DNA of 12,113 bases, from the IMG/VR virus record IMGVR_UViG_2703718787_000020. One strand, given 5' to 3'. Below, in pieces: positions 1-6,000 of this stretch. The stretch comes from a virus (lineage: Duplodnaviria; Heunggongvirae; Uroviricota; Caudoviricetes). Position numbers: made by a program. The first letter of the stretch is position 1, and the number at the start of each line of letters is the position of its first letter.

Positions 1-3000
1 ATGCGTATAGGACAAAATCGTTTTTTGGGGGCTATACACATGTTGCTTTCAGACCTTGCTATCCGTCGCGCGAAGCCAAAAGAGAAAGCCTATACACTCA
101 ATGACGGCAACGGGCTTTCGTTACTCATTGAGCCGAACGGTTCGAAGGGCTGGCGATTGCGATACAGGTTTGCAGGCAAGCCCAAAATGTTGTCGCTGGG
201 TGTTTATCCTGAGGTGTCCCTTTCTGATGCCAGGACGGCAAGGGATGAAGCCAAAAGGCTTATCGCTGGTGGAGTTAATCCGAGTGAGGTCAGAAAGGCC
301 CAAAAGCGAGAACAGGCGAACAAATGCGGCAACACCTTTGAGGCGATCGCCCGTGAGTGGTATGAAAAACGCCTGGACCGATGGTCTCCCTCATATGCAG
401 AGGAAATGATAGAGACGTTTGAAAAAGACGTTTTTCCGTACATTGGAGGTAGGCCCATCGCAGAGATTAAGCCGATGGAATTGCTCGCGGTTCTATCCCG
501 TCTTAATGACCGTGGCGCAACTGAAAAATTGCGTAAGGTTCGCCAGCGATGTGGCGAAGTGTTCCGGTACGCAATAATTACCGGACGCGCTGAATATAAC
601 CCCGCTCCTGATCTGGCAAGCGCATTTGCACCACACAAAAAAGAGCATTACGCGTATCTGAAAGTTGATGAGCTACCGGAATTTTTCCGCGTTTTTAATA
701 CGTACACCGGAAGCCAGATCGTCAAGCTGGGTATGCGATTGTTGATTCTTACTGGACTTCGCCCAGGTGAATTACGGCAGGCAGAGTGGCAGGAGATTGA
801 TTTTGATAATCGTCTGTGGGAAGTGCCGAAAGAACGAATGAAAATGCGCCGTCCTCATTGCGTGCCACTTTCAGAACAGGCGATCGCTATTCTGGAACAG
901 TTAAAACACATGACGGGGCAGTATCCGTTTATTTTCCCTGGTCGAATACAGCACAGTAAGCCGATGAGTGAAATGGCTATGAACGTGCTTATTCGTCGTA
1001 TTGGCTATGCAGGGCGCGTTACTGGTCATGGGTTCCGGCATACCATGAGTACGATTTTGCATGAGCAGGGTTATAACTCCGCGTGGATAGAAACGCAGCT
1101 GGCGCACGTCGATAAAAACTCGATCCGTGGCACATACAATCACGCGCAATACCTGGACGGACGGCGGGAGATGCTCCAGTGGTACGCCGACTATATGGAC
1201 TCACTGGAACAGGGCGGTAACGTGGTGCACGGCAAGTTTGGTGTATGTGCATAAAAACGACTGGACAAGTATACAGATGTATACTAACGTACACGGAAAG
1301 CTACAGGTAATATCCTTACAGATGGTTTTTCACGCAGTTACCCCATCATGTATGGACGGCGCTCCTTGTAACAACGAAGATGGAGTCTTCTACGCAGCTG
1401 AAAAGCTGGATGCTCTTTAACAGCCTTTGGTGCTTTCCTGATGCAGGAAAGAATAGGGATACATGCACCTTTACAATGCATGTAATGATTCACCAATGAG
1501 GCTGCGGAGCGCTGACAAAGCGCAATTGCTCTCTTGCCTGCCCACCATGCCCTGAAAAAGGGCGCTCTTTAAAACTACTGGACGTCACGCCTAATCGTGT
1601 GACCCCGCCGAAAAGCGGGAATAGCTCTACCTTGCTGGAGCATACCAACCACCAACCAAACAATCTGAATTTATCTTATGCAATACCACAACATGTTTTC
1701 ATGTTGTGGTTTTTGTCGTGTTCGTAATTTGACGCAAATAAAACTCTTGCTAAGCCACAGGAGGGGATTTTCGCGTCAACATTAAGGAGATTGATAAATG
1801 GCTAATAACAATTCATTCATCCGTCTTTCTGAGGTTATGCGCCGTACTGGTTACGGTCGCGCATGGATTTATCGCCTGATCAGCCTGGGGCGTTTCCCTA
1901 AACCGGTAAAAATTGGTTCCCGCTCCGTGGCTTTTATTGAAAGTGAAGTCGACGAATGGATTAACCAGCGTATTGATGCTTCTCGCAACAACGCCGCGTA
2001 ATAATCTTTTGGGAGGGGGATATTCTCCCCCAGCACTAAACCTGATTCGATAGCAGGAGTTTTCAATGAAACGTCCGAATGTGCCCGTACAGGGGCAGGG
2101 CTTCGTTCAGCCTGAAATCAGCCAGAACGATATATTGATTCGCCACAAAGCAAAGTCGCGTATTGATTCCCGCCTGTTTGCTGAACGCATCGGCATAAAG
2201 CACAAAAGCCTTTATTCGCTTATTCAGAAGCACAAAACCGGATTGCGTGAACTGGGTATCCTTCCGTTTCAAACGGAGCGATTAAAAACCAATCAACACG
2301 GAGAGCGTGAACATAAGTTTGCTCTGCTGAATAGCGATCAGTTTGATTACATGCGCCATATCGTGAGCCATTTCGCCGCTGAGCGTATGAAACACGTTAA
2401 GCAATACTTAGAGGAGGTTTTATCAAATTATCGCGCTGGTGGCTCTGTACGGCGCGAATATCCGCATGATGCAGGAATGGCAGGCAAAACAAAGGCGACC
2501 ACGAAAGGGTCGCCAGTGGAGATAAAGGAAATCAAGCGCATCACCAACTATGCCATGAGTGTAGCTGGTGGACAAGGCTATCAGCCAGGCGGTCGGTTTT
2601 TAGTGGCTTTTAACCGCCGTGGGTATTTCTCGACAAAATCTTCAAGGGCAAATTTTTTAGCTTTTGTATGTGATGCCTTTGACTCGTCATCACATGTTTT
2701 TCCGCGCCTTATCCTGTTTTCAATAAAACGGGAGGCGGCCTTTTTATTCAGCGATGAATCAATGGGGCTGCTCCCTGTTTGCTGCTCGACAATGGCATCC
2801 ATGAGTAGTTGGTGTTGTAGTTGTCGTAAAAATTTCTCATCTTCTGGTGGTAAATCCATACTTATTTCCTGTACAGCGGAGCGACGCAGCACCTCACACC
2901 ACGGCGCTGATGGTTGTTATTCGTTTTATGGAGTCAGAGAAGCAAAAGCGGATCGCTATCGGTTTTTAGGCGAGATTAATCGCCGTGGGTATTTGTCCAG

Positions 3001-6000
3001 AAATGCCTCAAGCGCAAATCGTTTTGGTCTGGTGAGAGGAGAGGGATTAAGCAAAGACTCGCGTTCCAGGCGTACTTTTTCGCGCTGGCGCTCAAGTATG
3101 GATAATGCGATTTCCTGTAATTCTTCATTTGTCATTGTCTGTACCCGTAAAGCGGTGCGCTGTAGTACCTCATATCACAGCGCAGGTATTTTTTATGGTT
3201 GTAATTTGCGTGATGATTCAGGTCGCTTTGCGACATACTGCATAAACATAAATAACGTGATGTTATTATGTGCTTTCAAAGAAAACGCAGGTATTTTTCG
3301 CACAAACTTCTCTCGCAACACATCCGACCACTTAAGCAAAAAAGCGGCATATACTGAGGCTATCCCTTATAAAACGGGGATCGGGATTACCACCCCGCAG
3401 GAGTTAGAGGCGATACACGACGCGCCAGCGTCTTTTTTTGTATCGGCGCACACGCACACCTCAACAATGGTGGGCTGTATGGGGCCGACTTCGGTCGGGC
3501 TGGTTTCCTCTAACGCCAGTTGTGGTAACCCTGTACAGTCCACCGCCAGCGAGCTTACCACCTCCGGCGGTGGGTATAATCCCAAAGTCAGAGGAGCCTT
3601 TCACATGGCTGTATCCGCACGCCCTTACTTTGTCTGGCGCTTTATGCAGTGCCTGACAGGCAGCATTGCAATATTCACCGTTACCGCTGCCACTGAGCGC
3701 GAAGCACGCGCCCAGCTGCCGCACGCACATCTGATTTTTGTCGCCCGTATCCGTCAGGAGGTGACTCATGCTTAAAACCTTCCGTGTCTTTTCCCGTGCC
3801 GTTAATGCACGCGGCTATACCGTTGGTATCTCGCAGAACGTGAAGGCCGAAAACGTCCAAGCTGCAATCAGCACAGTAATTAACAAATCAGCTAAAGCCG
3901 GTTTATCCGGCGTAATTATCCACTCCGTTCATGAAATTAAGGGGGGGCAGTAATGCAGGAAATGACACTGGCAGAAGCCTCGCTGCAAGCGCAACAGGTC
4001 GAAGTAATCAGCCGCATGATTGAACGCATGATTGAACGCAACCACGAAGAAATAGACGACCATGACCTTTCTGTTATTGCCGGACTTATCAAACAACTTT
4101 CCAGCAATGTGGCGGTGTGGTTAATGACGGAGGAAGAAAAACGCGGCGAACAATAACGGCTAAAAATAAACGGGAAATAAAGATTAAGACGACTCCTTCA
4201 GGAGATTAATTCAATGGCATCAAAAAATACTGGCTTAACTGCCAGTAGCAAAACTCACCCCGAATTCATGCGCGGGGATATTTATCGCGATAAGTACGGC
4301 GGCATCGTGACGATTATCAGCACGAGAGAACGACGTATCACCTACCGCCGTGAAGGGTATGACTATGACTGCGTGATGCCCCTGTATCAGTTCAGTCGTG
4401 ATTTTTCCCTGATGCAGGCCGTGCCATGTGGTAAGCCAGCCAGCAACGCAAAAGCAGAGGCGAACATCCGAAAGATGAAAAACATGATTAACGCATTCAG
4501 GGGCAAGAAATGAAAAGCGCACCGAATTTAAAAAAACAGCCGAAAGACAAAATGACCGAAGTCATTATCTTTGCGGGTAGTGATGCCTGGGCACATGCGA
4601 AAGAGTGGAGCGAATGGGCCGGAAAGCATATTGCAGCAGATGATACACCGCCCGTTATTCTTGGACCGAAACAACTGGCGAGCCTGGAAGACACGAAAAT
4701 CATCGATAAAGGGCGCAATTACGTGCGCGTTTATCGTGCTGGTGAAATATCAGAGACAGCACTTTTACAGATAGCAACACTGCTTGCGGTGGCGGGGGTA
4801 AAGGAGGCACGTTGCTACAGCGGCTTTGTTGACCAGCAGCCGGAGGACTGGACACCGCGCATGGCTGGACTGAAGGATGATGCGGAACGCGGCAACTGCC
4901 TGGTGATCAATCTTCCGGCAAAGACAAATTTCACCGGAAATTATGATGACGAATTAAAACCCCGCGTTGAATGCCGTCCTGATGGCGTTTACTGGGTGAC
5001 GCCAAAGGTTGATAAGCAATCTGGCGAAATTATCCGTCCGTTCGAATGGCTGTGTTCTTCCGTTGAATTACTCGGTTCAGGTGTCATTGGTAACGAGCAT
5101 TACCGCGTGATGCGCTGGACAGATTCGACAACAAATCGGCTTGTCACTATGGCTGTGCCTTGCTGCGGAATAGGCGACACTGACGGCTGGCGATTACTGA
5201 AAGCCAACGGGCTTAAAGTCACGACAAACGGAAAACACAGGATCCCCCTGGCTGACTGGATGCAGTTAGGCGGACAGCATGAGGAATGGCACTTAAGCAC
5301 GAAAGCTGGCTGGCACTTTGGCGCGTACATCATGCCGGACGGTACGGTTATCGGCGAATCTGACAAGCCCGTTTTGTTTACCGGAAAAAGTGCCGCGATT
5401 AACGGTTATTCCGTGGCAGGAACGGCGGAAAGCTGGCGCGACAGTGTGGCGCGGCTGGCTGGTGGCAATCCGTTCATGATGCTGGGTATAGCGACGTCAT
5501 TATCCGCGCCATTAGTCGGGCTGACAGGCGCTGATGGTTTTGGCGTGCATTTTTTCGAGCAATCCACAGCAGGCAAGACCACAACGCAGAGCATCGCGTC
5601 GAGCTTGTGGGGCGATCCTGAGGCGCTGCGATTAACCTGGTACGGAACGGCGCTGGGGATAGCTAACGAAGCAGAAGCACACAATCACGGACTCCTTCCA
5701 CTGGACGAGATAGGGCAGGCAGGAAGCCCCCGTGACGTGTACGTATCCTCATACACTTTGTTCAATGGATTCGGAAAATTACAGGGGGCAAAGGACGGCG
5801 GCAACAGAGAGCTGAAAAACTGGCGGACCGTTGCTATCAGCACCGGAGAGGTGGATATCGAAACATACCTCAAAACGTCGGGGATAAAAGTTAAGGTCGG
5901 GCAACTTGTGCGCCTGCTCAATATCCCGATTCAAAAAGCCACGCAGTTACACGAATACAGCAACGGAAAGGATCACGCTGACGCATTGAAGGCGGCATGG

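Follow-up and report, generated by a model that had tools for sequence, protein, structure and literature searches.

Small antisense genes inside a long eta-like open frame of an Escherichia coli phage satellite

Can one stretch of satellite DNA answer to two demands at once, encoding proteins on one strand while the other strand is kept free of stop codons? This question is raised by the virus record IMGVR_UViG_2703718787_000020 from IMG/VR (Caudoviricetes), of which a stretch of 12,113 nucleotides (nt), here called the window, was analyzed. Two short open reading frames (ORFs) on its minus strand, ORF1 (92 amino acids [aa]; 2581-2859) and ORF2 (59 aa; 2956-3135), both lie inside a 569-codon frame on the plus strand (2066-3775). 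An earlier note on this DNA had described two such ORFs within a 1.7-kb opposite frame, and the coordinates are confirmed. It had further held that the minus-strand ORFs are the real genes and that the plus-strand frame is not. The first part of this proposal is upheld by the evidence below, whereas the second is contradicted. The reading favored here, with moderate confidence, is that ORF2 and ORF1 form a leftward regulatory mini-operon, placed antisense within a frame that is kept open for ribosome transit.

The minus-strand small genes

Evidence that the two minus-strand ORFs encode proteins comes mainly from their homologs. Every ORF2 ortholog, at 74-87% DNA identity, is intact and has the same length, and their ratios of non-synonymous to synonymous substitution rates (dN/dS) are 0.19-0.39 in the minus frame compared to 0.38-0.73 in the plus frame. 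Among the computable homolog pairs, dN/dS is lower in the minus than in the plus frame in 25 of 26, the remaining pair being a tie; two pairs with saturated dS and one without synonymous differences were left out. YlcI-type genes of related islands, which served as positive controls, display the same asymmetry toward the minus frame. The enrichment of synonymous changes between the two copies, on which the earlier note had relied, is weakly borne out within the window, where the differing codons comprise 4 synonymous and 9 non-synonymous changes in the minus frame and 2 and 12, respectively, in the plus frame. This within-window test is blunted because the third codon positions of both frames coincide. 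Together with membership in a protein family, a conserved leader hairpin, and a terminator, the dN/dS values argue that ORF1 and ORF2 are real protein-coding genes.

The two genes share a repeated C-terminal block of 75 nt on the minus strand (copy 1, 2593-2667; copy 2, 2959-3033), with 75% nucleotide identity and a spacing of 366 nt. The copies encode TKAKKFALEDFVEKYPRRLKATKNR and TRPKRFALEAFLDKYPRRLISPKNR, respectively, which are 64% identical. As had been noted from the sequence, the 5' flanks, including the leaders, are homologous, and the N-terminal halves have diverged to the point that they cannot be aligned. The former description of the genes as tandem-duplicated overstates their closeness, as they are diverged paralogs of one family rather than the products of a recent duplication. 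That the variable N-termini and the conserved C-termini represent swapped specificity domains is plausible. ORF2 is a canonical family member and fits the family throughout; it ends after KNR, having lost the last three codons of a typical member (usual length, 62 aa). ORF1 combines the family C-terminus (FALExF..KYPRRL..KNRPPG) with an unusual N-terminal half, and fits the family in its C-terminal 28 aa and its leader only. A protein match to ORF1 (P0001) is 93% identical. An alternative call for ORF1 starts at a GTG and gives 103 aa (2581-2892, minus strand); the ATG at 2859, preceded by AGGA in the conserved leader (AGGA-N8-ATG), gives 92 aa. An intergenic distance of 96 nt separates ORF2 from ORF1. 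At another locus (L005, 1853-2041), a single gene joins the N-terminus of ORF2 to the C-terminal block and 3' flank of ORF1. Because this gene looks recombinant between the blocks, the repeats probably mediate recombination that changes module number by unequal exchange.

Searches of 5.8 billion proteins and 1.84 billion representatives yielded about 19 clusters of this family at 90% identity and 17 true members among 50%-identity representatives, all from E. coli and all named 'hypothetical'. Family members, with lengths of 56-94 aa, begin with a helix that bears an (I/L)(I/L)xRQxE motif; a linker rich in Pro and Gln connects it to a 'FALExF' helix, which leads into a basic tail, and this second helix and the tail together have the consensus (R/K)FA(L/I)ExF(L/V)xK(Y/H/C)PRR(L/M)K..K(N/T)RPPG. 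Replacements in this region are conservative, with FALExF, FAIEDF, or YALEEF followed by KYPRRL, KHPRVM, or NCPKKM and then by ..KNRPPG. The earlier note had been unable to assign a family, and ORF1 and ORF2 indeed have no match in Pfam, NCBIfam, PHROG, PADLOC, PDB sequence profiles, or Foldseek-PDB. The AlphaFold model of ORF2 contains helices at residues 3-29 and 41-48 (predicted local distance difference test [pLDDT] score, 78.7). With respect to YlcI/YnfO (NF041551) or ribbon-helix-helix (RHH) proteins, neither ORF has an NCBIfam or Pfam match, and the model shows helices only, in contrast to the N-terminal strand and two helices of an RHH fold. The pair also lacks the makeup of a type II toxin-antitoxin system, as the window contains no RHH or antitoxin gene and gives no match to toxin-antitoxin or defense hidden Markov models. 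A degenerate DNA pattern for KYPRRL..KNR produced only 2 chance matches (Geobacter and Spirochaetia) in 185,579 species-representative genomes and thus revealed no relative beyond E. coli, and tblastn of ORF2 and a YlcI-like partner against 50,697 phage records returned nothing meaningful.

The family genes are all preceded by an mRNA 5'-leader hairpin of the form GCGCCGU-13 nt-ACGGCGC with GAGG in its loop. The ORF2 copy (3157-3183, minus strand) reads GCGCUGU-GAUAUGAGGUACU-ACAGCGC, carries GAGG in the loop, and stands approximately 22 nt before the ATG, whereas the ORF1 copy (2881-2907, minus strand; columns 13-39 of alignment A4) is degenerate. In the leader alignment, 88.8% of cells are paired, a level reached by 2-3 of 500 shuffles, and three pairs show compensatory changes. 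The U-G wobbles allow pairing in the minus-strand RNA only. An origin of the modules as decayed RNAs of the C4 type, or as targets of C4, was considered and rejected, as Rfam searches at E<=10 return the known C4, isrK, and a1b1 elements only. The sole part common to the leader loop and the C4 loop is GAGG/CCUC. Approximately 70 nt downstream of the ORF1 stop, an intrinsic-terminator-like hairpin with a T run (2514-2494, minus strand; GGCGACCCTTTCGTGGTCGCC TTTGTTTTGC) probably marks the end of the leftward transcription unit. The 3' flank of ORF1, about 100 nt, is conserved in sister islands.

The plus-strand frame as an eta homolog kept free of stops

The plus-strand frame starts 65 nt after alpA with its own Shine-Dalgarno (SD) sequence (AGGAG at 2054-2058; AGGAG-N7-ATG). 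From start to end it comprises a Rha-like N-terminal remnant, the antisense passage over ORF1 and ORF2, an isrK-like leader, a C4 RNA, and an Icd/Kil-like C-terminus. Phage_pRha matches aa 33-96 (23.4 bits, below the cutoff), the Pfam domain Phage_ASH aa 429-515, and the Icd-like domain NF033153 aa 522-564 (48.1 bits; cutoff, 25). Within the isrK-like or a1b1 (P4 seqA-like) leader (3349-3439, plus strand) lie the C4 target GUUAGAGG at 3403-3410 and, at 3419-3432, an intrinsic terminator with T7 after it. The Rfam isrK model scores 49.1 bits at 3362-3438, 0.9 short of its gathering score of 50, and c4-a1b1 scores 19.5 bits. The C4 antisense RNA, a P4 CI-like immunity RNA, lies at 3463-3550 on the same strand (Rfam RF01695, 77.7 bits, E=3e-14; threshold, 45). 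As read from the sequence, its loop CCUCUAAC (3507-3514) can pair over its whole length with GUUAGAGG, which directly precedes the terminator at 3419-3439, and with 7 of its 8 bases at the ribosome-binding region of icd (3588-3596). The C4 loop and its two targets display the classic a1b1/a2b2 (seqA/seqC) layout. The last part of the frame is a nested icd/kil-like gene of 56 aa (3605-3775, plus strand; NF033153), with an SD sequence of its own (AGAGGAG, 3590-3596).

The eta ORF of P4 (L025, 8812-8168) carries the same elements, with scores of 60.8 bits for isrK, 74.9 for C4, 82.2 for Phage_ASH, and 73.1 for the Icd-like domain (eta aa 161-208). It lies downstream of the alpA homolog orf88, which the eta start overlaps. 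According to passages of PMC10111431 that cite Forti et al. (1999, J Bacteriol 181:5225), Kil of P4 is the terminal nested part of eta, the promoter of CI RNA lies inside eta, and translation of full-length eta on late-promoter transcripts prevents immunity-specific Rho-dependent termination. Passages of the same paper place CI/seqA homologs and C4 and isrK matches within the Bro zones or genes of phage-inducible chromosomal islands (PICIs). Because elements and domains follow the same order, and because an SD sequence and ATG follow alpA, the 1.7-kb frame can be assigned as an eta homolog, about 370 codons longer than that of P4. By these sequence criteria, it is a stretched version of the nested eta/kil ORF. 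A further observation concerns Phage_ASH (PF10554), which covers exactly the stretch of the isrK/seqA-like and C4/CI RNAs, both in the window (3350-3610) and in P4 (L025, 8330-8700). This coincidence suggests that what the 'Ash protein family' captures is, for the most part, conserved RNA genes in eta-type frames read as if they were protein.

The stop-free state of the frame is evident in the window and recurs in its relatives. Between 2066 and 3775, the frame has 0 in-phase stops, compared to 26 and 35 in the other two plus-strand frames. In every intact related island examined, which accounts for 39 of 42 related loci, the antisense small genes lie inside a long stop-free plus frame. Over 15 related E. 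coli loci and 24 of 25 IMG/VR loci taken together, the stop-free stretches that cover the small genes span 204-765 codons. They measure 297-574 codons in the related E. coli loci with an intact island and 204-765 codons in all 24 informative IMG/VR satellite contigs; locus L017 is a fragment, both ends of which are set by its 804-bp contig. The third codon positions of both strands coincide in every case, and the spacers are stop-free too. Broken plus frames occur in decayed copies, namely those of EDL933 (beside iha), RM7190, and IMG/VR locus L026. The EDL933 copy (L007, 3700-4510) is a module with 74.5% identity in the tellurite/adherence island, near insertion sequence (IS) remnants. Its ORF2-type gene is intact, with the opposite frame in pieces of 135 and approximately 90 codons. 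Decayed modules of this type are present in about 680 E. coli genomes.

Depletion of stops was quantified over 21 instances of antisense small genes, which fall into 11 sequence groups, often unrelated, and sum to 1430 codons. These contain no plus-strand stop at all (0/1430). For comparison, real plus-strand genes of the same island were read as controls in the corresponding antisense register, where 49 of 1974 codons are stops, or 2.5 per 100. At this rate, approximately 35 stops would be predicted where 0 are observed (Poisson 4e-16). When synonymous codons are resampled, the probability that an individual gene has no stop is 13-57%, and the conservative joint product over the 11 sequence groups is 5e-6; for ORF1 alone, an overlapping plus frame without a stop has P=0.25.

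The protein that the plus frame would encode behaves differently. Ser makes up 16% of its residues, Arg 11%, and Cys 5.5%, and the translation of 2585-3348, rich in Ser, Arg, Phe, and Cys, has no family match. Differences at 2336-2580 number 27, 20, and 17 at codon positions 1, 2, and 3, respectively, with no 3-periodicity, and the lack of codon periodicity rules out this segment as the C-terminal domain of a real plus-strand protein. The plus-strand product thus shows no detectable amino acid-level constraint, and it is the openness of the frame that is conserved. These patterns show selection for an open plus frame, with both DNA strands constrained at once. They also bear on the dismissal of the frame in the earlier note, which is contradicted by the SD sequence and ATG, by the eta-like order of ASH and Icd, and by a stop-free state beyond chance. 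The note had looked to protein-level conservation of the plus frame as the sign that would speak against its case; what was found is a product without amino acid-level selection.

Proposed ribosome transit and rival explanations

The company that the family keeps is informative about its role. In sister islands, the first leftward slot holds an RHH-type gene (YlcI/YnfO-like or Arc-like; also Arc/HicB-like) and the second a family member. The YlcI/YnfO-type partner genes encode 59-103 aa, and NF041551 matches score 61.9 and 60.6 bits. This order, an RHH gene followed by a small basic protein, is seen repeatedly and involves two RHH types that are unrelated to each other and have separate operators. 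Both the proximity to RHH autoregulators and the position of the genes favor regulation over cargo functions for the small proteins. Based on the gene arrangement, the leftward unit most likely serves regulation or maintenance and is expressed while the island is quiescent.

A working mechanism can be proposed in which the leftward unit would run from ORF2 through ORF1 to the terminator at 2514-2494 and cross about 0.55 kb of the plus frame. In the quiescent state, a rightward promoter just upstream of 3362 (TATACT, 3350-3355) would make short transcripts that yield C4 RNA; these would stop at the isrK terminator or else be held back at the ribosome-binding site of icd. The ORF2-ORF1 unit would be expressed from the 3136-3340 region. 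Upon induction, by analogy with P4, ribosomes in the long frame of AlpA-dependent transcripts would pass the antisense genes, the terminator, and C4 before they arrive at icd and the replication genes. Rightward transcription under such ribosome cover would open up the isrK terminator as well as the structures of C4. Convergent rightward transcription would also silence the leftward small genes by interference, giving rise to a switch. Because the plus frame would have to stay open for ribosomes, the antisense genes would be required to keep their phase and to avoid NNT-CAN and NN(T/C)-TAN codon pairs. The analysis establishes the anatomy of the locus, its homology to eta, the coding status of the small genes, and the selection for an open plus frame, and from these we infer the antitermination role, the transcriptional interference, and the roles of the small proteins. 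A more general formulation, offered tentatively and with slightly less than even confidence, is that such satellites possess a 'ribosome conduit', a frame of 0.6-2.3 kb whose amino acid sequence would be irrelevant and which would have to stay stop-free for ribosomes that carry late transcripts through an array of antisense regulatory genes, a terminator, and an immunity RNA. The antisense genes within it would have adjusted their phase and codon usage accordingly. If true, it would be a clear example from nature of long antisense overlaps in which openness by itself is selected, and the satellite would have an inbuilt bistable switch, with the small leftward regulators in one state and translated read-through to the right in the other.

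Several observations weigh against transit through a regulatory mini-operon. No consensus sigma-70 promoter passes in a scan of 1700-4300 on both strands, and looser rules give weak candidates only, including the TATACT -10 element at 3350-3355. Although eta overlaps its alpA homolog in P4, alpA in the window ends at 2001 and the long ORF starts at 2066 with its own AGGAG, so the two are adjacent without overlap. The long plus frame over the antisense genes does not reach C4/icd in L012, in L024, or in 13 of the 25 IMG/VR loci, where a second ORF takes over; continuity of the plus frame with icd is therefore common, not obligatory. The plus-strand RNA over the small genes shows no C-richness, and thus no obvious Rho-loading signature. 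The AlphaFold model consists of two helices only and has no structural match. Finally, all relatives come from E. coli alone, which limits phylogenetic independence to distinct gene types.

Other explanations assign reality to one strand only. According to one of them, only the minus-strand genes are real, and the long plus frame is a chance or 'shadow' ORF extended far upstream from the icd start. In its favor, the plus frame has a Ser/Arg/Phe/Cys-rich translation that matches no family and a higher dN/dS than the minus frame; in addition, the wobble-aligned antisense register is intrinsically stop-poor, and PGAP names the 546-aa product from its last ~45 residues only. A stop-poor register does not suffice, however, to account for the absence of stops from all 1430 codons at the rate found in control genes or for the joint resampling result. 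All small genes, moreover, keep one register with stop-free spacers between them, an SD sequence and ATG stand at the start of the long frame, and P4 offers the precedent of a functional long frame ending in kil. This explanation is quite improbable. The converse, which makes the long plus ORF the source of a working 'Bro-network' protein of several domains (Rha-N ... ASH-Icd) and treats the minus-strand ORFs as its shadows, is very improbable. It draws on passages of PMC10111431 in which PICI Bro-network genes are described as domain-swapping, Phage_ASH and Phage_pRha included, and on the recognizable Rha-like N-terminus and Icd-like C-terminus of the frame. Yet the partner genes on the minus strand are confident members of the YlcI/YnfO family, and the minus-strand genes have conserved starts, stops, leaders, and a terminator. 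The minus-frame dN/dS is lower or equal in every computable pair. On the plus strand, codon periodicity is absent from 2336-2580, and the Phage_ASH segment coincides with the isrK and C4 RNA genes.

It is also conceivable, albeit unlikely, that the small genes are accessory cargo inserted in the Bro zone, such as a toxin-antitoxin-like or anti-phage pair of an RHH protein and a small basic one, and that the plus frame stays open for another reason, for instance so that the rightward RNA does not anneal to the leftward mRNA and become a substrate for RNase III. The recurrent order of RHH and small basic genes would suit such cargo, as would the variation in module number and the shuffling of modules between islands. 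Nevertheless, the window has no RHH gene, just two family paralogs; the genes are 57-96 nt apart with a structured leader rather than coupled; PADLOC and toxin-antitoxin families give no match; and the proteins are hydrophilic helices devoid of a toxin-like fold. A leftward regulatory unit within a frame open for ribosome transit accordingly remains the favored reading, at the moderate confidence given above.

Island context and known systems

The window is 100% identical to a chromosomal island of E. coli STEC2018-607 in a database match, and the island is inserted beside tRNA-Gly and actS. Its plus-strand genes include an integrase (to 1254), alpA, DUF4222, a DUF927 primase, a single-stranded DNA-binding protein (SSB), ProQ/FinO, PerC-like genes, and a Q-like antiterminator. 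The alpA gene, an AlpA/Vis-type regulator, lies at 1798-2001 on the plus strand (Pfam Phage_AlpA, 73.1 bits; a helix-turn-helix regulator according to PGAP). The co-orientation of int, alpA, the DUF927 primase, SSB, and PerC beside tRNA-Gly is that of a Gram-negative PICI. In passages of PMC10111431, the Gram-negative PICI layout consists of int-alpA, a dynamic Bro/immunity-RNA zone, and then primase-SSB. By gene content and order, the locus under study can be placed in the 'Bro/immunity' zone, the regulatory part of a PICI-type phage satellite of E. coli.

Other features of the island touch on regulation. A ProQ/FinO-family RNA chaperone, three PerC-like regulators, and the Q-like antiterminator are encoded at 7946-8362, 8382-8675, 9593-10064, and 11448-11840. 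Either the structured leader hairpins or C4 could have the ProQ/FinO protein as their partner. A GC-rich hairpin without a U tract (GGGAGGGGGATATTCTCCCCC, 2013-2033) lies between the alpA stop and the SD sequence of the long ORF, and it could be a site at which an AlpA-type antiterminator regulates pausing or termination.

Sister islands vary in both operators and modules. In L012, L013, L015, L018, and L020, the 100 nt upstream of YlcI-like genes contain two or three direct or inverted repeats around a TATACT-like -10 element. The repeats before YlcI/YnfO-like genes are variant-specific (for example, GTCAGCCAC, GTGTCTTAC, and GGTATTCAC), a pattern that looks like repressor-operator co-variation with different immunity specificities. 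The longest stop-free frame, 765 codons ending in Icd, occurs in L034 (IMG/VR UViG 2534682163_000012, 1378-3672). It is antisense over at least three small genes in one register, namely a YlcI-like gene of 59 aa, a family member of 75 aa, and a YlcI-like gene of 103 aa. Locus L009 carries two C4 RNA genes (3533-3620 and 4014-4101), and in L012 a degenerate C4-leader/icd remnant lies upstream of the small genes (island coordinates 4399-5000). PGAP annotations of the type 'Icd-like protein (x3)' arise because some islands carry two C4 genes or C4-icd remnants. Such second copies and remnants in relatives indicate that whole immunity modules duplicate and shuffle.

These findings correct annotation in both directions, since RefSeq calls a 546-aa 'Icd-like protein' here and omits both small genes, and the reverse holds in sister islands. 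They also add an uncharacterized small-protein family, so far found in E. coli only, to the regulatory core of PICI-type satellites, including those of Shiga toxin-producing E. coli (STEC) strains. The P4 eta/kil principle, in which translation acts as antitermination, would be extended to frames three to four times longer that cross opposite-strand genes. The locus further offers a statistically clean natural example in which one strand appears to be selected for protein and the other for openness only. It bears on whether long antisense overlapping frames in bacteria are ever functional and on how Gram-negative PICIs are silenced and switched on. The literature consulted contained nothing relevant on YlcI/YnfO function or on antisense genes in PICI regulatory zones.

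Comparison with known systems separates what is shared from what is distinctive. P4 eta/kil resembles the locus in that the long ORF lies directly downstream of an alpA/vis homolog, contains a seqA/isrK-like site and a CI/C4 RNA gene on the same strand, ends in about 60 codons that form a separately translated Kil/Icd-like gene, and has the Pfam ASH and NCBIfam Icd-like domains in the same order. However, P4 eta has approximately 200 codons, compared to 569 here and up to 765 in relatives; its isrK-like element begins after only about 120 nt, and antisense genes are absent from it. The extra length here runs antisense through one to at least three small genes, and the overlap between alpA and the ORF is absent. 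The P1/P7 immI operon (c4 - icd - ant) and Gifsy-1 isrK-orf45-anrP likewise share the C4 RNA, the upstream a1b1/isrK target, the downstream target at the icd SD sequence, and a small Icd-like ORF. In contrast to these systems, no ant gene follows here; replication genes take its place, Rha/Ant-like sequences are found upstream, and a leftward protein-coding unit adjoins the RNA switch.

The Gram-negative PICI 'Bro zone' differs as well, being described in passages of PMC10111431 as one of unidirectional Bro proteins; a keyword look-up in that paper did not find 'antisense' or 'opposite strand'. YlcI/YnfO proteins (NF041551) correspond to the first-slot genes of sister islands, whereas ORF1 and ORF2 belong to another, unnamed family. 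Antisense 'shadow' ORFs are similar in their wobble-aligned register, which is usual for long shadow ORFs, but here stops are depleted relative to both controls and resampling, and the frame is joined to a functional start and end. Overall, the locus is a variation, carried by a PICI-type satellite, on the established P4 eta/kil-C4 design of immunity, from which it is distinguished by an embedded operon of antisense small genes and by measurable selection for an open frame.

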